From the NCBI GenBank assembly GCA_965246715.1, contig CBDFFH010000032.1, positions 1-34,692 of the forward strand: a stretch of 34,692 nucleotides of DNA, read 5' to 3'. The stretch comes from Chamaesiphon sp. (GTDB taxonomy: Bacteria; Cyanobacteriota; Cyanobacteriia; Cyanobacteriales; Chamaesiphonaceae). The notes under the pieces are model-generated. The model did not search any database, had not been told where the DNA came from, and was given only the letters and a program-made list of their open reading frames with translations. Positions 8,186 to 34,692 of this stretch are shown here, one piece after another; the stretch's first letter is position 1; each line of letters begins with the position of its first letter. The position numbers and the translations under genes were made by a program.

Positions 8186-8266
8186 TCCAAGGTACAGGAA
8201 TCGAACCTGTCTAGAGTTTCCTCGCGGATTATGAGTCCGCTGCCTAAACCGATCGGCCAACCTTGG
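8186..8266 (-). tRNA. tRNA with CAU anticodon, probably tRNA-Ile2 (lysidine), with extended variable arm; CCA not encoded
   Basis: CCAAGGT/ACCTTGG acceptor stem, GCGGA-CTCATAA-TCCGC anticodon arm, ACAGG-TTCGATT-CCTGT T arm; CCA.GGTTGGCCGA start resembles cyanobacterial trnI-CAU. Confidence 0.9.
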
Positions 8267-22572: not shown

Positions 22573-25500
22573 TTAGCGTGGGCCAGGAGGTGCAGGATCG
22601 CCAACGTATTTAAAGGCTGAGGAATTCAGATTGAGGCTACCGAAATTACCCGTAATAGTAGCCATATAGTCCAATTGCGCTTGGCCATTTTTGTCTGTGT
22701 AGCCGAGGTAGAGCAGCTCTTCACCACCAAAATTGAAGAGGGTGTATTTCGCTGCATATCCTGTTAAATTTCGCAGTTGAATCACATCACCTTTACTAGG
22801 ATCGAAGTTGACGATATTGGCATAATCGTTACCTGCGTTACTACCGTCATAGAAACTATGAGTGTAGTAGATGCCACCTGGTGCGATCGGGTTGATAATG
22901 CTGTTGGTATTGCCGAACGCATCTCCTAAGACGAATGTATCTGCTCCCGCGCCGCCATAGAGGGTATCCTGGTCGCGCGCGAGGTCGTATGTGTGAGTGT
23001 TGAAGCCAAAGCCGCCAGGAACTGGAGTGAATGTATCAAAGCCTCGATCGGTATTATCAGTACCTTGTAGTGTGCTACCACCAGCACTAGCTCTGAGCGT
23101 ATCGTTACCACGTCCGCCGATCAGGTAATCGTAGCCACCAGATCCGCCGCTCAAGTCATCGTTACCGTCACCACTGCTGATGTAGTCATCCTTGCTGGTA
23201 CCAGTCACCTCAAAGCGATCGAAGTTGGTGAAATCGACGCGATCGAGTAGTGGCACGGTACCATCTTCATCATCAACGCTGATGTATCGCTTGCCATAGC
23301 CGCTCTTGTCGGAACTAACATAAAACCCCATTCCACCCCCAGTATCGCCTTGGGAATAATCCACATGCAGCGTGCGGGTAGATAAATTACCTGTAAAAAG
23401 TCCGAATAAACTAGTACCGAGACCACCATTGACGGTATCGAATCCTAGCCCTGGATCTACATAGTTAGAACCGTAACCTGTCTTGCTGAAATTGTTATTA
23501 ACTCGACCTGGCTGGACGATCCGATCGTCGGTTCCCGATCCGGTGGTAATGTCTTTGAAGACTTCAAAGTTTTTAATCGTAGTCGAGCTGTCAACAAAAT
23601 TCGTGCCGTCAAATTGCTTGGCGTTAGGATCGTTAGGATCGATACCTGTGAGTTTAATCGAGACAGTTTTGTCTCCGAGATTATCGGACAAAGTGTCGAT
23701 CCCATCGCCGCCATCGAGGTAATCGTTGCCGCCACCACCAGTTACGGTGTCATTACCTGCTTCGGTAAAGATGACATCACCTTTGGCATTGGAGCCGCCT
23801 GTAATATTGTCATCTTGAATGGTGCCAGTGAAGAATAAGCGATCGATGCTAAGAAAGCTCACCGCATCGAGAACAGTTTTGCCATCACTGCTCGATCGAG
23901 TAATACTACCAAAGCGAGAACCTGTAAATCCACCCTTAGCTCCAGCACCATAGTCGCCGAGAGAATAGTCTATAGTCAGGCTATTGGTAGCAAATGTGCC
24001 CCCTACGACAACATCAGTACCACCTTTACTCAGCCCAGGATTGAAGTCACTGCTAAACTCATTACCACCAAAAAAAGTATCCGCTCGATCGGAACCGATG
24101 AGATTCTGGATACCAAATAGCTGGTCTCCTTCAGCATCCGATCGCTGACCCAAACGTGTTGCGAGATTGACTGTGACTGCACCTGGAGAATCTGCATAGC
24201 TGGCAATATTACCACCACCTCGGTTGCCACTAGCAATACTAGCTGAATCTAAGTCTGCGCGGAGGGTACCTGTATAGCCATCCCCAGAGAGGTAGTCGGC
24301 ACCCGCACCACCAATGAGGAGATCGTTCCCGTCGCCACCGAAGATATTGTCGTTGCCTGCACTGCCGCGAATGATGTTGTCACTGCGATCGCCTCTCAAA
24401 GTATCATTGTAAATCGAGCCTTCGAGATTTTGGAACGAACTCCGATTGGTATCGACACCTTTATCGTCTTTGTCTGCAAGTATTTTGTCTCCTGCTGCAT
24501 GACCACCACTTTGAGTGGTTCCTGGCGTAAGATCGACATTTACTGCTGCTGTAGAGAGCGCGTAGGATAGCCAGTTAATCCCCGCATCCCCGTCTAGTAC
24601 GTCACTACCCGCCCCTGCATAGATGAGGTCGTTCCCCAAGAAACCATTAATGTAGGCACCTGTGTAGACATAACCATTTTTTGACTTATAAGTACCAGAT
24701 GGAGCAGCATTTCCCGCCACCAAGATATCATCGTAAACCGATCCGACGATGTTCTGAACATTTTTGATGGTATCGTCTACGACATCATAGCCACCCACCG
24801 CACTATTAGCAGATAGGTAGATCGGTGAAGCAGTAGTGGGTGCAATTATAGGGAAAGTCTCACCCACACTCTGACTGGATAGATTCACATAAATGGGGCC
24901 TGGAGCCAGCGCGTAGAATACCGTATTGGTGCCACCGCCACCATCTAAATAGTTCTTGCCAGAGCCGCCGACCAACAGATCGTCTCCCTTACTACCTAGT
25001 AACGTATCGTCACCTGCTTCACCTTCGAGCACTGCATCAGCATCACCTGCGATCAGCGTATCGTTGAATCTCGAGCCGACAGCATTTTCAATATTTATCA
25101 GCGTATCTACGCCACCGTAGCCATTTTTTACTGCCGCACCCGTACCTAGATTGACAAAGACATCAGTAGCCGCAGCGGAATAGTCAACAGTATCGTTACC
25201 ATCACCTCCGTCTAGAAAATTGTTACCCGCTCCACCAAAGAGGAAATCTTCGTCTGCGCCGCCATAAAGTTGGTCATCTCCCGCACCACCATAGAGAGAG
25301 TCATTACCACCCTCGCCTTTGATAAGATCGTTACCGCTCCCACCAAAAAGTTGGTCGCCAGGTTTGTCGGCACCTTCATTTCCGCCTGTTAATTCCGCTG
25401 AGGTGAAAACTTGGTCGCCGATCGCGATCGTATCGCCTTGATTACCACCATTTGCAACAATTTTATTAACGTTTTTATACTCTTTGGTAATGTCTGAATA

Positions 25501-28248
25501 ACCAATAATTAATGTGGCATCATTAGCAGCACCTGATTTGTAATTGACGGTAAATGCTTCCGCGTCATCGATACCAGCTTTACCATCGATTACTCGCGAG
25601 GCAGCCGTCGTACCCATATTTAGAGACAAATTGCCATTAGCCAAAGCAGTTGCTAAGAAGCTGCTAATCGCAATTTTACCTTTCTCGGCACTATTACAGC
25701 CCAGTGAAAAATCTAGCAGCGTAGTTTTAGCAATATCGAATTTCTTCTTAATCCCAAATGGGCCGATCCCAATTTTGACAAAGGCATTTAAGTATGCATA
25801 AGCATTACCCTCAACTGGAGTAAAGATACAACTCGAATCGAATTCATTTAAATGTAGCTTATTAATATCGCCGTCTAAATTTTTATTTCCTACAAGCCCC
25901 ACGCCTAGATTACTGCGGATCTCGCCGCCAACTCCCGCACTTGCTAAGACCACATTGAGAGCAGCATACGCACCGATATTGGCAATGACTTCACCGCCTG
26001 ACTTCCGCCCCGCCGGACCAGTCGGATCGGGCGAATTGTCGATATAAAATCCATCAAAAATCTGACTGGCATCGCTACTGGTGCTGAATCGTTTGATGCC
26101 ATAGCTGTCATAACCTACGGCTAATTGTACTCTGGCTTTAAAGTTACCTGTAAACTGAGCACCCAATGGGCCGATAATTGGGATAAATTTATCGAAACCT
26201 TTTTCAAAAGACAGCTCTGGCAAGGTATATTTAAAAAATTCTGCATCCTTGCCCAGCAGCAGATTAAATACTTGAGTGGGATCGGTTAAAATCGGAAACT
26301 CTGGTGGCGTAGCTTTCTTGGAACCGCCGCCCCCCGATGCCGCCTTAATCAAACTCGTAAAGTCACCAGCTTTTGTCCCATTTATTTCGATCCCACCTAG
26401 CTCTGCTAGAATTGCATCGGCAGTCTTTTTGACCTCATTGGCTAGTGGGGCTTTGGAGAGATCGAAACCTCCCACGCGGACATCACTCGCTCCTCCCAAA
26501 CTAAAGCTGCCAACATTGAGCGGAATCTTGCCCGTTCCTGATAGATCGGCGATTGTTTTCGTCAGTTTGTCGATTTTAATTAACTCATCAATAAAACCGA
26601 TCGCAGCGGAGTCTGGCTGATAAAGTTTGGCTAGATCGATAAATGAAACCTTACCATCACTATTTTGATCCAAGAAGCTTTTGCCCAAGTCATCAAGCAC
26701 TGGCAGTCTGCCATCGACGACATTTATTAAGGGACGAATCGGCTCCAAAACATCATTTAATTTGCCAAATACAGGACTGGCTAGATCCTTGAAAAACGAT
26801 CCCACATCTATGGTCACATTATCGAAAGTCACTGTAGGTGCGCTACCTGCATAGACACCGCCAGTCTTACCATCGGTACCCGCCGCAAACCCCCAGGCTA
26901 ATTTGAAATCCGCACCGATCTTGGGCAATTTATCCGAGCCACCAAAACTGGCATCTAGTCCCAGATTTAAGTTGGCATTACCATTAAACTTGGCAGCAAC
27001 CGTCAGATTATCTGGATTGAAGATCGCTCCGATATTTTTGAGATCGACGCTAAAATCTCCCTGGATCAGGCTCCCTTGGTCTTTCGCATCTAGCTGTAGG
27101 AAGCCGAGCTTACCCGTGAGTGCTAGTGGCTTGTCGAGCGCATCTACCAGTTGGGTTTTGAGCTTCAAGCTCAATTCTGGAGCCGCACCATCGGTCTTGA
27201 CAAAGAAACCATTAGTTTTATCGACCCCAAATTCCAGATTCCATTCGAATGATAGATCGGGGGTAACGCCACCATTGAGTTTCAATCCTAGAGCTGGCAG
27301 TCCAATATTTTCATCAAGACTAATCCCTTTTTTGACTTCTTGTCCTAGTTTGAGCTTGAAGCTGACACTATCGGTACCTTCGATCGCATCGATATCCGCG
27401 ATGTCGATGACATTATCCCCATTACTATCCCGCAACAGATCCAACGCCCCATGCAGCACGTCTAGCAATGCCTGTCTGGCTTCTAAAACGGGAGCGTCAC
27501 CAGGAATCGCATTTAATTTGGCAACTATTTGAGTTTTAAACCCGTCGAACAGCGAATCGAGCGGATTTGCCAATCCCAACTTATCGCCTAAAATCGGCAA
27601 TCCTTTCAGGACTTCGGTGTTGATATAGCCCTTAACTTTATCCAACAGCACGGGAATATTGTCGCTCAGTTTGGCTTTGAGATTGGTGCCTGTATAAGTA
27701 CCAGCTTGCTCGATGTCGATCCTACCGAGATTGGGGAGGACGATCTGGTTCCGGTCGTCTTCTGTCCCGATCTGCTGGAGCTGAGTATCGCTAGTGGGAA
27801 TATTCCGAACGATCCGCGAAAACAGCTCGCCCTCATCGCCAAGACTATCGACGCGATTTAGCCTAGCATCGATCCGATGTCCTGCCTCTTCCAACAAAAC
27901 GCTAGCAATCACTTCGGGTCGATCGAGATTGGCAAGGAGAAAATCCTGGGAGAGATAGATGCGATCGGTTGCTGCGGCATACGCTCCCTTAGCATTACCC
28001 ATTACGGTACTGGGCAAAATCTCAATCCCCAATAGCACGCTAAAATCACCATCTTGCCAATCCAACCGATACGAGTCTACATTTACCCCAACGCCAAAAG
28101 CTGCTGACAATTGCTGCTGAAACTGTGGATTGCTAGCAAATTTTTGTAACTGCGATCGTACTAAAGTTAGCGACTGTTCTAGCGATGGTAGCAAATCGGG
28201 AGCGGTGGTGAGGGTTGAGTGGTTAGTCAGGGCAGAGGTGGTAGGCAT
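22573..28248 (-). CDS. Large RTX (hemolysin-type Ca-binding repeat) surface protein
   Basis: Many GGxGxDxLx nonapeptides in the C-terminal half; N-terminal GAYAA.TD.IYLS...LLEEAGH.ID...D..GDEGELF module; no Sec signal. Confidence 0.88.
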   Translation of the reverse strand: MPTTSALTNHSTLTTAPDLLPSLEQSLTLVRSQLQKFASNPQFQQQLSAAFGVGVNVDSYRLDWQDGDFSVLLGIEILPSTVMGNAKGAYAAATDRIYLSQDFLLANLDRPEVIASVLLEEAGHRIDARLNRVDSLGDEGELFSRIVRNIPTSDTQLQQIGTEDDRNQIVLPNLGRIDIEQAGTYTGTNLKAKLSDNIPVLLDKVKGYINTEVLKGLPILGDKLGLANPLDSLFDGFKTQIVAKLNAIPGDAPVLEARQALLDVLHGALDLLRDSNGDNVIDIADIDAIEGTDSVSFKLKLGQEVKKGISLDENIGLPALGLKLNGGVTPDLSFEWNLEFGVDKTNGFFVKTDGAAPELSLKLKTQLVDALDKPLALTGKLGFLQLDAKDQGSLIQGDFSVDLKNIGAIFNPDNLTVAAKFNGNANLNLGLDASFGGSDKLPKIGADFKLAWGFAAGTDGKTGGVYAGSAPTVTFDNVTIDVGSFFKDLASPVFGKLNDVLEPIRPLINVVDGRLPVLDDLGKSFLDQNSDGKVSFIDLAKLYQPDSAAIGFIDELIKIDKLTKTIADLSGTGKIPLNVGSFSLGGASDVRVGGFDLSKAPLANEVKKTADAILAELGGIEINGTKAGDFTSLIKAASGGGGSKKATPPEFPILTDPTQVFNLLLGKDAEFFKYTLPELSFEKGFDKFIPIIGPLGAQFTGNFKARVQLAVGYDSYGIKRFSTSSDASQIFDGFYIDNSPDPTGPAGRKSGGEVIANIGAYAALNVVLASAGVGGEIRSNLGVGLVGNKNLDGDINKLHLNEFDSSCIFTPVEGNAYAYLNAFVKIGIGPFGIKKKFDIAKTTLLDFSLGCNSAEKGKIAISSFLATALANGNLSLNMGTTAASRVIDGKAGIDDAEAFTVNYKSGAANDATLIIGYSDITKEYKNVNKIVANGGNQGDTIAIGDQVFTSAELTGGNEGADKPGDQLFGGSGNDLIKGEGGNDSLYGGAGDDQLYGGADEDFLFGGAGNNFLDGGDGNDTVDYSAAATDVFVNLGTGAAVKNGYGGVDTLINIENAVGSRFNDTLIAGDADAVLEGEAGDDTLLGSKGDDLLVGGSGKNYLDGGGGTNTVFYALAPGPIYVNLSSQSVGETFPIIAPTTASPIYLSANSAVGGYDVVDDTIKNVQNIVGSVYDDILVAGNAAPSGTYKSKNGYVYTGAYINGFLGNDLIYAGAGSDVLDGDAGINWLSYALSTAAVNVDLTPGTTQSGGHAAGDKILADKDDKGVDTNRSSFQNLEGSIYNDTLRGDRSDNIIRGSAGNDNIFGGDGNDLLIGGAGADYLSGDGYTGTLRADLDSASIASGNRGGGNIASYADSPGAVTVNLATRLGQRSDAEGDQLFGIQNLIGSDRADTFFGGNEFSSDFNPGLSKGGTDVVVGGTFATNSLTIDYSLGDYGAGAKGGFTGSRFGSITRSSSDGKTVLDAVSFLSIDRLFFTGTIQDDNITGGSNAKGDVIFTEAGNDTVTGGGGNDYLDGGDGIDTLSDNLGDKTVSIKLTGIDPNDPNAKQFDGTNFVDSSTTIKNFEVFKDITTGSGTDDRIVQPGRVNNNFSKTGYGSNYVDPGLGFDTVNGGLGTSLFGLFTGNLSTRTLHVDYSQGDTGGGMGFYVSSDKSGYGKRYISVDDEDGTVPLLDRVDFTNFDRFEVTGTSKDDYISSGDGNDDLSGGSGGYDYLIGGRGNDTLRASAGGSTLQGTDNTDRGFDTFTPVPGGFGFNTHTYDLARDQDTLYGGAGADTFVLGDAFGNTNSIINPIAPGGIYYTHSFYDGSNAGNDYANIVNFDPSKGDVIQLRNLTGYAAKYTLFNFGGEELLYLGYTDKNGQAQLDYMATITGNFGSLNLNSSAFKYVGDPAPPGPR

Positions 28249-28973: not shown

Positions 28974-31316
28974 ATGACTAAGCACCAAGTCGGAGCAGAG
29001 CCGATCTCAGCAACTAGCGAACTCGCAAATCTGACTAACTGCGATCGCGAACCCATTCAGATTCCAGGTTGTATCCAACCACATGGAGTCCTGTTCGTTC
29101 TCAGCGAACCAGAATTAAACATCGTTCAACTTAGTACCAATACATTGCAGTGGCTGGGTCGAGCGCCAGAAGACTTTTTAAACAAACATGTAAGTATCCT
29201 GCTAGGTGCAGCAGAAATTCAGGCGATCGGGCAGTGTTTGGCCGGAGATTTTGAATATGTCAACCCCTTACGCGTCAATCTCAAAACATCAAGCGGTACG
29301 ATTTCGGCCTATTGTATTACCCAGCGGGTGGAGGGCGCGATCGTCATCGAGATCGAGCTAGGCTATGCCGAACCCACCCGCGAGGATATCACTTATTTTG
29401 ACTTCTATCGGCAAGTTAAAGCGCCGATCGCCGCACTCCAGAGCGGTGGCAGTTTTGAACAGCTATCCGAACACCTAGTCGAGAGCGTCCGCCATATTAC
29501 CGGATTCGATCGGGTGATGCTGTATCGGTTCGAGCCATCGGGCGATGGTAATGTGCTTGCCGAAGCTCGGCATCCAGAACTCGAGCCATATTTGGGCTTA
29601 CACTACCCCGCAGCGGATATTCCAGTGCAAGCGCGACGGTTATACGTGCTCAATCACCTGCGGCTAGTGCCGGATGTGACCTACGAACCGATCGAACTAT
29701 TACCCAAGCTCAATCCGCTGACGCAGGACCCCTTAGATCTGAGCTGGTCGGTATTGCGCAGTATCTCACCCCTGCATATCGAGTATTTGCAAAATATGGG
29801 CGTGCGGTCATCGATGTCGATTTCATTGGTGCGCGATGGGAACTTGTGGGGATTGATTGCTTGCCATCACCGTGAGCCAAAACTGATCCCTTATTACTTG
29901 CGGACTGTGTGCGAATTTATCGGTCAGATGGCTGCATTTGAGTTGACTGCCAAAGCTGACTTGCAAGATCGCGACTATCAGATCGAGATCGATGCGCTCA
30001 AAACGTCGTTTTTTGAGTCAATTTCGCGCCAAACTGATGTCTTGACTGCCCTGACGCAATCGCCAACCGACTTATTAAATCTTGTCGGCGCGACTGGGGT
30101 AGCGATCGCGATTCAAGATGAATTTACGGTCTTGGGCAATACCCCCAGTATCGATCGATTACGCGAGCTGCTAGTGCGGCTCGCACCGCGCCTCCAAGCC
30201 GAAGGTGTCGTTCAAACCGTCCGGCTGGTACAAGACTATCCGGAGTCCGCAGCCTATAGCGATATCGCCAGTGGGATGCTAGCGATGATGGTGTCGCGCG
30301 CTCAAGATTTCTATATCTTGTGGTTTCGGCCAGAAGTCGCTCGGGTCGTTACGTGGGGCGGCGATCCCTCCACAACCGGGTCGACTGAGGAAAATGGTGA
30401 GATTCGGCTCTCCCCACGCAAATCCTTTAGTGCTTGGCAAGAGACAGTCCGCCAGACGGCATTACCCTGGAAAACCAGTGAATCCGCAGCCGCGATCGAA
30501 TTGAAAAGTGCGATCGTCAACGTCGCTTTACGACACGCAGCGGAAGTATCCCAGTTAAATCTGGAATTGACGCGCAGCAATATCGATCTAGATTCATTTG
30601 CCTACGTCGCTTCGCACGATCTCAAGGAACCCTTGCGCGGGATTCATAACTATTCTAGCTTCCTGCTCGAAGACTATGGCGAGATTTTGGATGGCGATGG
30701 CGTATCGAAACTCGAAACGCTGATTCGCCTCACCCGCCGGATGGAACACTCGATCGACTCGTTATTGCATTATTCGCGATTGGGGCGCTCCGAACTAGCT
30801 ACTAGTCAACTCGATCTCAATCTCCTCGTTCGGGAAGTAGTCGAGTTATTTAAAATTACGGCTGCTAATGCGCTAGAGGTCACCGTGCTGCCGCTACCCA
30901 CGATTTGGGGCGATCGCCCGCAGCTGAGCGAATTGTTTACCAACTTAGTTAGCAATGCGATCGAATACAACACCAATACCCCCGTCAAAATTGAAATCGG
31001 TGTCCTCGATCCGGCAATCGCCACCCGTAAATATCGAGATCGATTGCCATCAGAGCTGCGCGATCGCGCCCACATTTTTTACGTCCGCGACAATGGCATC
31101 GGGATCGAATCGATCCACCTCGAAGATATCTTTCGGATTTTCAAACGCTTGCACGTTCGCGATGAATATGGTAGTGGGACGGGCGTGGGCCTGACGATCG
31201 CCCAAAAAATTGTCGATCGTCACGGCGGCAAAATTTGGGTCGAGTCAGTCCTCGGACAGGGAAGTACATTTTACTTTGCCCTGCCCGATCGATCCACCAC
31301 GCAGCCGCAGGCTTGA
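28974..31316 (+). CDS. Bacteriophytochrome-type sensor histidine kinase (PAS-GAF-PHY-HisKA-HATPase), CphB-like
   Basis: CDREPI..PG.IQPHG, DRVMLYRF, ADIP, SPLHIEYL, PRKSF, SHDLKEPLR, DNGIG, GTGVGL. Confidence 0.93.
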   Translation: MTKHQVGAEPISATSELANLTNCDREPIQIPGCIQPHGVLFVLSEPELNIVQLSTNTLQWLGRAPEDFLNKHVSILLGAAEIQAIGQCLAGDFEYVNPLRVNLKTSSGTISAYCITQRVEGAIVIEIELGYAEPTREDITYFDFYRQVKAPIAALQSGGSFEQLSEHLVESVRHITGFDRVMLYRFEPSGDGNVLAEARHPELEPYLGLHYPAADIPVQARRLYVLNHLRLVPDVTYEPIELLPKLNPLTQDPLDLSWSVLRSISPLHIEYLQNMGVRSSMSISLVRDGNLWGLIACHHREPKLIPYYLRTVCEFIGQMAAFELTAKADLQDRDYQIEIDALKTSFFESISRQTDVLTALTQSPTDLLNLVGATGVAIAIQDEFTVLGNTPSIDRLRELLVRLAPRLQAEGVVQTVRLVQDYPESAAYSDIASGMLAMMVSRAQDFYILWFRPEVARVVTWGGDPSTTGSTEENGEIRLSPRKSFSAWQETVRQTALPWKTSESAAAIELKSAIVNVALRHAAEVSQLNLELTRSNIDLDSFAYVASHDLKEPLRGIHNYSSFLLEDYGEILDGDGVSKLETLIRLTRRMEHSIDSLLHYSRLGRSELATSQLDLNLLVREVVELFKITAANALEVTVLPLPTIWGDRPQLSELFTNLVSNAIEYNTNTPVKIEIGVLDPAIATRKYRDRLPSELRDRAHIFYVRDNGIGIESIHLEDIFRIFKRLHVRDEYGSGTGVGLTIAQKIVDRHGGKIWVESVLGQGSTFYFALPDRSTTQPQA

Positions 31317-31422
31317 GCCATCCAGCGTCACCCTACCATCGCTCCAACTAGAATTAATGTCAAATTGCCACAATTTTGCGAATGTCCTGTGGTTACTAAT
31401 CTCTAGCCCTTAACTATATTTA

Positions 31423-31601
31423 ACCTGAATTCGGGATAAGGATCTACACTCAATGGCTTCTAGCTTTGTTCTTGCGCCACCGCCGATTGAAATCGGGGCT
31501 AACAATACGAAGTCCGCCTACGCGGACTTTGCAACACGAGCCACGATTTCACTCGTTGGCGGTGCGGGAACGGAGCAGATATCCCGATCCCGAATTCACG
31601 T
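31423..31601. mobile_element. MITE (179 bp), TIR family A
   Basis: ACCTGAATTCGGGAT ... ATCCCGAATTCACGT; TATTTA direct repeats; internal AGTCCGCCTACGCGGACT shared with 13054-13253. Confidence 0.78.
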
Positions 31602-31629
31602 TATTTAAATAAACTACCGCTCGTCGCTC

Positions 31630-32154
31630 ATGAATTCCTCCACCACAGCAGCTCGATCCTCACAACTTTCCACTCAGCCAGTACCGCCGCTGGTGCTAGT
31701 CATTGAGGATAGTGACGAAGATTATGAAGCACTCAGGCGAGCGTTCGATCGCTCGCCGATCCTGACGCGACTGCATCGCTGTCATACTGGTCAGCAAGCA
31801 TTAGACTATCTTACTGTCTCCGTGCAGTCGTCGTCTGCCAGGGCAACAACTATCCCCGCCTTCATCCTGCTCGATTTAAATCTGCCAGGGATCGACGGAC
31901 GGCAAGTATTGAAGACGATCAAACAAGACCCAGTGTGGCAATACATCCCGACGATCGTCCTAACGACATCTAATTACGGCAAAGATATCGAAGAATGTTA
32001 TCGGTTGGGAGCCAATAGTTACCTGCTCAAAGCTCTCGATTTACAACAGTTTAAAAAATCGATTCACACCACGATCGAGTTCTGGCTCGATATTGCCAAA
32101 TTACCCAAAATTGCTGATGTCATTCGCATGCAATCGCAAAACTCGATCGATTAA
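31630..32154 (+). CDS. Single-domain response regulator, phytochrome-associated Rcp type
   Basis: IEDS.ED, LLDLNLPGIDG, LTTS, Y.LGANSY..K, FW. Confidence 0.92.
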   Translation: MNSSTTAARSSQLSTQPVPPLVLVIEDSDEDYEALRRAFDRSPILTRLHRCHTGQQALDYLTVSVQSSSARATTIPAFILLDLNLPGIDGRQVLKTIKQDPVWQYIPTIVLTTSNYGKDIEECYRLGANSYLLKALDLQQFKKSIHTTIEFWLDIAKLPKIADVIRMQSQNSID

Positions 32155-32892
32155 CTCACTGGTGGCGATCTGTTTATCCGTTATTGAGGTGACTGAGTGC
32201 GGCAGTTTCTCACCTAGAACAGCAGGATGCCCCCACCACAACGGTACTCCGCTCAGTGGCGGGTAATTGAGTGCGGTTCGTTTCTATGAAACATAGGTAT
32301 TACCTATGGGAATTAGAGTTCTTACACCGCCTTGGTTGACATTAAAAAACCTCAAAGAAAGTAAGAATAACTTTAATCTAGTGTGAGTGAGTCGAACTTA
32401 AATTTGACAAGTCTCACCCGTTGGGAATGACGTGAAGCCAAAATTGCCCACATGGACAAAGAATAAAACTTTGAAAATGAAGCTGGGAGCAAAACGAGGA
32501 CAACAAACCTGAGATGGGGGTAACTCGTACAGGCAGGTAGTCATGGTTAAACATCAGTTGAATTCTCGGAAAAAGCGTCCAACCCGCATCACCCAAAATC
32601 AAGGGCGATAACGACACATATACCCGCATCGTTTTTCAATTAATAGATGCAATTCTGGGTAGTCGTGGGCGAAGTGAGAAAACCTAAAACTACAAACCAA
32701 CTAGATTAAGGAACGAATAAAACGGCTCTTTCAACCTCCAGTCACAAAGAGAAATCACTGAAGCTGTGGACTCCTTAAATAAGAGTTAGCGGGTAGAGTT
32801 GGTAAGATGTACTCGAAAATCCAACAGGTAAGGACTGTTAGACAACTGGGTACGGTTTGCATAATCAATGTTCAAAATGCGTAGAGAATGTT

Positions 32893-34470
32893 ATGACAAC
32901 GGAGTTAAATCCAGTTGATAAATGGAAATCGCTACCGTGGCGCAAGTTGCGGAAGATTGTATTTCGCCTACAAGTGAGAATATTTAAGGCTCAAAAGAAC
33001 GGTAACGCGCTCCTAGTGCGTAAGCTTCAGAAACTTCTATTAAGCTCTAGAGCAGCAAAATTACTAGCCATTCGGCAGGTGACGCAGCTAAATACTGGAC
33101 GGAAAACCGCTGGGGTGGACGGAAAGAAAGCCCTTGAACCCTCCCAAAGATTAACACTGTATGAAGTGTTAGTTAAGAACTGGAAGCAATGGAAGCACCA
33201 GCCATTAAAGCGAGTGTACATCCCCAAAGCAGACGGAACAAAAAGAGGATTAGGAATACCAACCATTAGCGATAGAGCATATCAATGTCTAATTAAATAT
33301 GCCTTGGAACCAGCAGCAGAAGCTACATTCAACGCCCGTTCATATGGGTTTAGACCAGGCAGAAGTTGTCACGATGTCCAAAGACTACTATTCAGTAACT
33401 TAAACGGTGGTCAAGCCAACGGTCTAAGTAAAAGAATTTTAGAGCTAGACATCGAAAAATGTTTCGATAAGATCGACCACAAATTCTTAATGCGATCTGT
33501 CCAATTACCAAAGGCAGCAAAACAGGGGATTTATCGGGCAATTAAAGCCGGAGTTAGAGGGGAATTTCCCTCTTCAGATTCTGGCACACCTCAAGGCGGC
33601 GTAATTAGTCCGTTACTGGCAAATATAGTCCTACATGGATTAGAAAATGTCGGTCATGAATTAAGATACAAAGTCAGAAGTGGGGGCAAACAAATAGATA
33701 CTATCAAAGGATTCCGATATGCGGACGATGTAGTTTTCTTATTAAAACCCGAAGATAACCCAGAAGTCCTCAGACAACACATTGATACCTTTCTGGAAAC
33801 AAGAGGATTAAAAGTTAAAGAAGCCAAAACCAAGATGGTACATAGTACAGACGGTTTCGACTTCCTTGGGTGGCACTTTAGAGTTAAACCTAATGGTAAA
33901 TTCATTTCAACACCAAGTCAAAAAGCTACCTTTAGCATCAAGACGAAAGTTAAAGAAGTGATGAAAGACAGTCGTTTTACCCTCGAACAACGAATCGACA
34001 AGTGCGGTGCAATAGTTCGAGGGTGGAGAAACTATCATCGGTTCTGCGATATGAGTCAACACAACCTGTGGGCTTTAAACCACTGGACGTGGAAATTCAT
34101 CCGAAAACAGGGAAGATACGACCGTACCCAAACCAATCAGGTAATATCAAGAGCATTTCCCTCAGTTAAATGGTCTATTTGTAGATTCAACAACGTTATT
34201 GGAGATAAATCTCCATACGATGGGGACTTTATATACTGGTCAAAGCGAGAAAATGTTAACTACGAAGGGGTAACGGCACGACTTCTCAAGAAGCAGAATC
34301 ATAAATGTACAGAATGTAACCTATCGTTCATTTCTGGGGACATCGCAGAGCTTCACCACATTGACGGCAACCATTCAAATTGGAAACCTAATAATTTGGA
34401 AGTACTGCACAGAGAATGTCACCAGCATCAAACCATTCATGGTCGGATGAGAGTCCGAACAGCGGGGTAG
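32893..34470 (+). CDS. Group II intron reverse transcriptase/maturase with HNH endonuclease (ORF open from 32857)
   Basis: TAGVDG, RGLGIPTISDR, SYGFRPGRS, GTPQGGVISPLLANI, YADD, FDFLG, GWRNY, CTEC..HHIDGN..N...N...H..CH. Confidence 0.95.
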   Translation: MTTELNPVDKWKSLPWRKLRKIVFRLQVRIFKAQKNGNALLVRKLQKLLLSSRAAKLLAIRQVTQLNTGRKTAGVDGKKALEPSQRLTLYEVLVKNWKQWKHQPLKRVYIPKADGTKRGLGIPTISDRAYQCLIKYALEPAAEATFNARSYGFRPGRSCHDVQRLLFSNLNGGQANGLSKRILELDIEKCFDKIDHKFLMRSVQLPKAAKQGIYRAIKAGVRGEFPSSDSGTPQGGVISPLLANIVLHGLENVGHELRYKVRSGGKQIDTIKGFRYADDVVFLLKPEDNPEVLRQHIDTFLETRGLKVKEAKTKMVHSTDGFDFLGWHFRVKPNGKFISTPSQKATFSIKTKVKEVMKDSRFTLEQRIDKCGAIVRGWRNYHRFCDMSQHNLWALNHWTWKFIRKQGRYDRTQTNQVISRAFPSVKWSICRFNNVIGDKSPYDGDFIYWSKRENVNYEGVTARLLKKQNHKCTECNLSFISGDIAELHHIDGNHSNWKPNNLEVLHRECHQHQTIHGRMRVRTAG

Positions 34471-34497
34471 ACCCGACTTAGTAGGTGTTAAAACTAG

Positions 34498-34531
34498 GAG
34501 CCGTGTGCGGTTAACGTCGCACGCACGGTTC
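34498..34531 (+). ncRNA. Group II intron domain V
   Basis: GAGCCGTG-TGCGGT-TAAC-GTCGCA-CG-CACGGTTC, 34 nt with AGC triad and 2-nt bulge. Confidence 0.93.
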
Positions 34532-34537
34532 TGAACG

Positions 34538-34692
34538 GTGCGGTTCGTTTTTAGCGCAAATCTCGTAAGAGACTAGTTCTAGAGTCCTCATACCGCCTGG
34601 GTTTTGACCCAAAATAATGTGAGGATAACTTCAATTTAGTGCAAGTGCGCTGCATGAGCAGCAAGTCTTGTCCGTTAGGGATGACGTGATGC
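34538..34692 (+). mobile_element. 5' end (domain I) of a second group II intron, truncated by the window edge
   Basis: GTGCGGTTCGTTT start and colinear similarity to 32271-32448 with compensatory stem changes. Confidence 0.85.

Follow-up and report, generated by a model that had tools for sequence, protein, structure and literature searches.

Group II introns lodged within one another raise the question of whether the inner element came to its place by accident or recognises some part of its host. The window considered here, i.e., the whole stretch of DNA analysed (34,692 nt, the entire contig C32, CBDFFH010000032.1, of the Chamaesiphon sp. assembly GCA_965246715.1, genome label G000), poses it at a particular position, with one group II intron (outer intron B) giving way shortly past its DV to the 5′ end of another (inner intron C). 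How did C come to lie at the catalytic end of B, and is this site a property of its lineage? With a probability of roughly 0.88, we consider the locus to be a three-deep group II twintron in which C, itself split by an innermost intron D, stands 6 nt past the DV of B and one base into its DVI, where it likely arrived by ordinary retrohoming, since its exon-binding loops pair with the conserved DV-DVI junction.

The nested stack and its continuation beyond the window

Upstream of the stack, the window holds one tRNA gene (8186-8266, minus strand), a 1,891-aa protein with RTX calcium-binding repeats (22573-28248, minus strand), and a phytochrome and response-regulator pair (28974-32154). The 5′ exon of B (32203..32270, plus strand, as are all window features of the stack given below) is a short remnant that ends in TTGA and looks like the right-hand terminus of an IS200/IS605 (TnpB) element. 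In its place, relatives have about 850 nt that form the front of a response-regulator/GAF kinase gene. A sister intron in locus L042 stands 4 nt after a TnpB ORF and has the same end motif in front of it. The clade of B (L040, L042, and L044) targets the ends of TnpB/IS605-like elements, at TTGA followed by a cytosine, and such ends are another mobile-element safe haven for this clade.

Intron B begins at 32271 with GTGCGGTTCGTTT and extends through its DV and the first base of DVI to 34537. EBS2 (32583-32587) and EBS1 (32636-32642) pair with its own 5′ exon over 5/6 and 7/7 positions, respectively, and EBS3 is a G (32674). The intron-encoded protein (32857..34470, 537 aa) is intact and comprises RVT_N, RT with YADD, maturase, and a C-terminal motif that appears HNH-like, as judged from the motif itself and a weak ZorE match with no Pfam hit. 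Besides its Pfam domains, the protein scores 319.7 bits against TIGR04416 (cut-off 300), and the best solved relative of its RT is 6ME0 (E 1.5e-74). RVT_N together with a length of 521-537 aa would fit CL2B as described in PMC8919778. The DV of B (34498..34531) carries the AGC triad, and its loop (34510-34515) has TAAC where relatives carry GAAA, a change that might weaken the B ribozyme or hide B from D, whose EBS1 reads GAAAGT/GAAACT. The Rfam model RF00029 fits tightly over DV and loosely past it (34496-34598, 37.8 bits, below the 40-bit cut-off), as is expected once DVI is displaced; Rfam searches gave no DI-DIV family and no omega-RNA family match.

After the last base of the DV at 34531 come TGAACG (34532-34537) and, from 34538, the same 13 bases that open B at 32271. 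As originally noticed, the 5′ part of C is colinear with DI of B but diverged (69.9% identity over 219 nt), the paired changes noticed earlier are present in the alignment, and C is thus a different intron; its reading as a tandem duplicate of B is rejected at 70-72% identity. The window stops 155 nt into C (34538..34692). Contig C43 carries the B ORF, the identical B-C junction, and the sequence downstream of the window end: C starts there at 38797, is interrupted by D (41063-43490), and continues to 43547, so that its entire 2,323 nt are 38797-41062 plus 43491-43547. The last 37 nt of B follow (43548-43584), including the remaining DVI, branch A, and AY end. D (2,428 nt, with an LtrA-like RT) splits the DV loop of C after GAAACT, and this third nesting level, outside the window, was missing from the earlier view. 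It had been proposed that the DVI and AY end of B be sought right behind C, and they do resume at the first base past its end, starting with AGAGG. Both halves of B therefore flank an entire C, and the structure of B is restored once C is removed. The placement of the insertion at the DV-DVI junction holds insofar as C follows the end of DV by 6 nt, but the cut falls one base inside the DVI stem and not between the domains.

C has both the 5′ GUGYG and the 3′ AY ends. With inserts removed in silico before folding, B and C each fold cleanly into DV and DVI hairpins, the branch A being unpaired in DVI, 8 bases from the end; the DV of C, folded without D, carries the AGC triad and its DVI a bulged A. 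RF00029 reaches 53.3-53.4 bits in the uninterrupted orthologs L033, L034, L036, and L039, ending at the same base. In subgroup IIB, EBS3 pairs with the first base of the 3′ exon and the branch A lies eight bases from the end. C displays the IIB features, and one alignment column tracks the expected +1 base in five introns, for three of which this base was deduced from uninterrupted relatives. The ORF of C in DIV encodes an RT/maturase and is frameshifted after 84 aa in the assembly, where contigs of the sequencing runs X1 and X2 are one base shorter; its 433-aa fragment scores 286.7 bits against TIGR04416, under the cut-off of 300, and the ORF is an intact 521 aa in 4/4 orthologs checked.

The relation between the two contigs requires some care. 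The B copy of C43 is identical to the window B over no more than the last 1,766 nt, its 5′ half being different. Two genomes of the same genus (G425 and G421) place the left flank of the window, i.e., the phytochrome and response regulator, about 850 nt upstream of the right flank of C43, a GAF-kinase fragment, and the EBS3 of window B (G) fits the cytosine that follows B on C43, a fit not provided by the A found at this position in the C43 5′ half. Owing to this synteny and the EBS3 fit, the tail of C43 is taken as the continuation of the window locus. By the same comparison, C43 is misjoined or recombined inside B, and the junction copies on C32 and C43 are probably one locus assembled twice; they are therefore counted once, their treatment as two independent copies being rejected by the synteny test. 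The DVI of another intron on C43, labelled A, was sought after the stack and is absent, as results from the misjoin or recombination within this contig. The ORF of intron A (L001:4859-6464) contains four single-base frameshifts, all missing from X1 contigs, hinting at indel errors in the assembly. Further upstream on C43 lies a 319-aa ORF with no Pfam or NCBIfam match (L001:392-1351, minus strand; G000:C43:30391-31350). It presumably resembles the C-terminal part of eukaryotic Penelope-like RTs and may represent foreign DNA or a chimeric contig join.

Across four runs, no read contig has at least 31 bases on both sides of the exact B-C junction. The run contigs support the boundaries of D and of the insertion in B: some contigs of X1 pass over D with exact ends, and a B-like DV-DVI free of insertion is present in X2. 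Such uninterrupted forms may be empty DNA alleles and are not used as evidence of splicing. Two RNA runs compared with the final 363 nt of the window, which do not include the far side of the joint, contained no spliced joint.

Target recognition and constancy of the insertion site

The EBS positions of C were set by alignment with four sister introns, each intron fitting its own exon best in the 5x5 cross-table. EBS2 (AACCG) pairs 5/5 with CGGTT in the DV 3′ strand of B (34526-34530), EBS1 (CUUUUAG) pairs 6/7 with CTGAACG (34531..34537, comprising the last DV base, the DV-DVI linker, and the first DVI base) with one C-U mismatch at -2 and one G-U, and EBS3 (U) pairs with the A at +1. Positions scoring as well as the site of C number 243 among 12,234,730 in the genome. 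Thus IBS2 is located in the DV 3′ strand, as had been supposed, and IBS1, expected to be about TGAACG, is the seven-base CTGAACG with six pairs formed. The complementary forecast of CGTTCA as EBS1 proved wrong, the true loop being CUUUUA(G); the sole CGTTCA word in the 5′ region of C adjoins the start codon and lies outside the Id3 loop.

The range of usable hosts was gauged on 36 distinct uninterrupted DV-DVI junctions, which were collected from fetched RT loci by a home-made finder and lean to relatives of the C RT. The EBS set of C matches none of them perfectly, 14 with one mismatch, 10 with two, and 12 with three or more, compared with 437 positions in 12.2 million (3.6e-5) of the genome under the one-mismatch rule. 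Since 14/36 junctions fit, the earlier description of C as a hyperparasite of group II introns generally is overstated, although the site is indeed kept in other host introns; judging from these pairings, the hosts open to C likely include many CL-type introns but fall short of group II introns as a whole. Self-avoidance by C is unsupported: its own junction would pair 7/7 at EBS1 and 3/5 at EBS2, its DV variant occurs too in relatives targeting elsewhere (L044 and those on contigs C2 and C34), and the host found in X24 would pair just 3/5 with its EBS2.

A metagenome search with the C RT returned 156 loci, and the best 80 were used. Seven near-orthologs were found among these best 80 of 156 (L033-L037, L039, and L067; 89-97% nucleotide identity where aligned). 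Inspection of the flank upstream of the C 5′ end, a check suggested together with the original prediction, revealed insertion 6 nt past a DV (DV+6) in 4/4 orthologs with a visible 5′ end (L033-L036, 96-97% identity), which span three different hosts, L033 and L034 sharing a host type and thus not being independent. The host DVI resumes in 4/5 loci reaching past the ORF end (L033, L034, L036, and L039), L035 being deleted at its 3′ end; no intron ends are visible in L037 and L067. The RT of the L036 host is 33% identical to that of B, the L034 host has no ORF in 487 nt, and EBS1 changes with the host linker, a CTGAGGG linker being matched by CCUUCAG. Two further hosts carry the C 5′ end at DV+6 according to loose ends of X1 and X24 read contigs. 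The five DV+6 RTs form one clade (SH-aLRT 100) in a quick tree built from 72 RT rows, with site labels assigned from flanks. The lineage of C thus keeps DV+6 in different host introns.

The surroundings of this clade are more diverse. Among the 18 closest loci in the best 80 of 156, 12 have a 5′ end, which lies at DV/DVI in 7, at IS-like ends in 3, and elsewhere in 2; the relative L148, with 85% identity across 149 N-terminal residues, has inserted at a place other than a DV. A GTDB-wide pattern scan gave 0/13 matches at DV+6, in a set that may exclude the source genome, and no ortholog of C occurs in 26 other genomes of the genus, so that few loci of the lineage are known. The phylum DNA search matched 8/401 genomes with no C ortholog, 3 matches in a scan of viral contigs included no intron junction, and none of 6 records from a plasmid search covered 80%.

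Order of splicing and competing readings

According to established group II biology, pairing of EBS1-3 selects the DNA site into which the intron RNP reverse-splices, with RT then copying the intron. For C, EBS2 would anchor on the conserved DV 3′ strand while the U-rich EBS1 would absorb A/G variation of the linker via G-U pairs, so that one intron could land in many different introns. At the RNA level, since D breaks the DV of C and C separates the DV of B from its branch A, splicing would run sequentially inside-out: excision of D would restore the DV of C, excision of C would restore the DVI and branch A of B, and only afterwards could B branch-splice or retrohome. C is in this respect likely a parasite of introns, which the host would have to shed before splicing. 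As the 7 kb stack occupies a TnpB-element end within a gene that had already been disrupted, the cell likely needs none of its splicing, and no intact gene would seem to need B, C, or D spliced.

An assembly misjoin, or a scar of recombination or deletion between neighbouring introns, might mimic such a junction, and the locus is not free of suspicious joins: C43 is connected to the wrong left flank through the 1,766-nt identical stretch of B, the DV halves around D on C2 and C34 are mismatched, and the exact junction is unbridged in the run contigs. We nevertheless regard an artefact at the B-C junction as highly improbable, because an outer-type DVI resumes at the exact base needed, EBS1, EBS2, and EBS3 of C all fit, and the same register recurs in other hosts in four independent metagenome assemblies and two read contigs. 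There is just as little to recommend the view that C is an ordinary intron which landed once, by chance or loose retrotransposition, with no DV-DVI-specialised lineage behind it. The RT family does retarget easily, the 5′ end lying outside DV/DVI in 5/12 of the closest loci and L148, despite its similarity, standing away from a DV, but all 5/5 rows of the tight clade are at DV+6 of different hosts with EBS1 tracking the linker, and one-mismatch agreement with other junctions (14/36) far exceeds the genomic background of 3.6e-5.

A further possibility bears on splicing order alone and can be reconciled with retrohoming of C into B: once D is gone, the 5′ splice site of B may use the near-identical DV-DVI of C, so that B and C leave, and perhaps move, together and 37 nt stay behind. 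The DVIs of B and C share stem sequences and the end motif, a similar pairing of host and inner intron has different downstream flanks in L033 and L034, and in the "zombie" twintrons of plant mitochondria the outer intron is spliced although splicing of the inner one is undetectable (available text of PMC7049729). Such joint excision is still unlikely, given that EBS3 of B is G but the base after the end of C is A, that Trichodesmium yielded an intermediate lacking the inner intron alone (available text of PMC4649490), and that the host DVIs of L033 and L034 differ, as separate invasions predict. Three-step excision beginning with D thus stays the favoured scheme.

No part of a group II intron is less free to change than DV and the DV-DVI linker, which therefore offer a renewable landing site, free for the cell and hard for the host intron to mutate away. 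If retrohoming is confirmed, the system will allow the shaping of ribozyme sequence by parasites of parasites to be tested, and it will provide a proposed three-step natural splicing cascade whose intact components are available from orthologs. For one published pipeline, failure to detect the outer intron of twintrons is on record (PMC8919778), so nested stacks are probably undercounted, which leaves a gap in annotation.

Known nested introns and other lineages at the catalytic end

Bacterial twintrons were initially said to sit mostly in the host intron ORF, a statement to be corrected in that published ones are not confined to ORFs, the Trichodesmium inner intron lying in DI. Homing of introns into other introns is already published for the RT motif, DIV, and DI, no description of a bacterial DV/DVI site having been found in the full-text literature searched. 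Among euglenid chloroplast introns, the Euglena gracilis psbF twintron reportedly has its inner intron in DV. In Eutreptiella petG I1, the inner element is 3 nt from the 3′ splice site (available text of PMC5572947). Like C, the inner intron of these chloroplast twintrons occupies a domain that the outer intron needs for splicing, but they are degenerate organellar introns at single loci, and the text available describes no mobile RT lineage tracking the site.

Closer in behaviour are B.th.I3, M.a.I5, UA.I3, and P.l.I2, which home into the RYADD motif of RT genes in other introns (available text of PMC2504315). Their IBS1/IBS2 also fall in a conserved part of group II introns, and they share with the nested intron arrays of Methanosarcina acetivorans (PMC4424553, in the part available) and with the present genome repeated nesting balanced by recombination between copies. 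As far as those texts extend, however, they recognise RT active-site codons and possess an RT without endonuclease, whereas the lineage of C recognises the DV 3′ strand plus a DVI base and has an RT with the HNH-like motif. For TeI3 inside TeI4 of Thermosynechococcus elongatus, insertion at a conserved site of another intron was named as a proliferation mechanism (available text of PMC2882425). That case is likewise cyanobacterial, with identical inner introns in diverged hosts; it differs in that the nesting has two levels only and the inner intron is ORF-less and lies outside the catalytic core, in the part of DIV that separates the first two ATGs, whereas C has an ORF and is located past DV. 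Two RT-bearing IIB introns are nested in another cyanobacterium, Trichodesmium erythraeum (Tr.e.I7/Tr.e.I8), where inside-out splicing was shown in vivo (PMC4649490, in the part available). There the inner intron is in DI, as in a similar insertion found here on C2 and C34, and the host gene is functional, in contrast to the DV/DVI position, three levels, and broken gene of the present stack. A full-text literature search found no bacterial lineage homing into DV or DVI, though supplements may list such twintrons, and the available portions of PMC12584367, PMC3534033, PMC4476101, and PMC2853384 contain no DV/DVI insertion.

In the source genome and elsewhere, further lineages use this end of the ribozyme. 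The RT of D is LtrA-like (LtrA 5G2X, E 5.3e-115 over residues 10-584; next match E 8e-36), which would place D in the ML class/IIA as far as the RT is concerned. All 5/5 full near-identical copies of D in the genome (C2:26006, C20:257365, C34:19905, C39:116140, and C43:41063) follow GAAACT in a DV loop, and among 12 loci of its relatives from other genomes, 6 have a 5′ end, each in a DV loop, two of them sharing one flank. The DV halves around D on C2 and C34, which do not match each other, suggest a recombination event or an assembly error spanning D. A stretch of 1,778 nt in the D ORF (L001:11615-13394) is missing from run contigs of very high depth (840 in X1 and 168 in X2), and these samples may be rich in a form of D that lacks the ORF.

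Insertion right after DV (DV+0) characterises a sister clade of B, to which 9/13 of the GTDB-wide pattern matches belong; more cases (L010-L013, L043, L049, L050, and L126) came from searches without site bias, and eleven DV+0 rows group together in the quick tree (support 94). Their EBS loops differ according to the host DV, and the source genome itself holds two of the variants (C39 and C43). These two B-type introns, L001:6508 (G000:C43:36507) and L004:5583 (G000:C39:118582), are 91% identical and follow the DV of two host types; their EBS1/EBS2 fit their own hosts at 7/7 and 5/6 and at 5/6 and 6/6, respectively. An extra base is present in the own DVs of the clade, 7/8 of which were parsed, and EBS2 pairs with 0-1 of 6 positions there vs 4-6 at the target, a pattern suggestive of self-avoidance; the picture is blurred by L042, whose target is an IS end but whose DV contains this extra base as well. 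L169 has a DV+0-type 3′ end, its 5′ end not being found by pattern. The remaining 4/13 matches (three Moorena, one Phormidesmis), together with L068 and L075, are at DV+11 and occupy a distant part of the tree.

It is tentatively conceivable, though we would sooner doubt it than assert it, that unrelated lineages at the DV loop, DV+0, DV+6, and DV+11 form a guild of intron parasites that converged on the catalytic end, disabling their hosts until spliced out, with DV changing to escape in an arms race, as the extra DV base of the DV+0 clade, abolishing pairing to its own EBS2, might illustrate.

Several other nested introns were encountered. An IIB2-like intron (L006:400, minus strand; G000:C9:158839) lies in the DV loop of another intron after GAAACTTG and is itself interrupted by IS-like sequence; its closest relative, L131, is not in a DV. 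B-like introns at L002:4123 and in L003 (G000 C2:24122 and C34:23310) are inserted in DI of A-type introns with 6/6 pairs at EBS1, and related introns at L127:603 and L134:661 interrupt RT ORFs of other introns, each at a position of its own.
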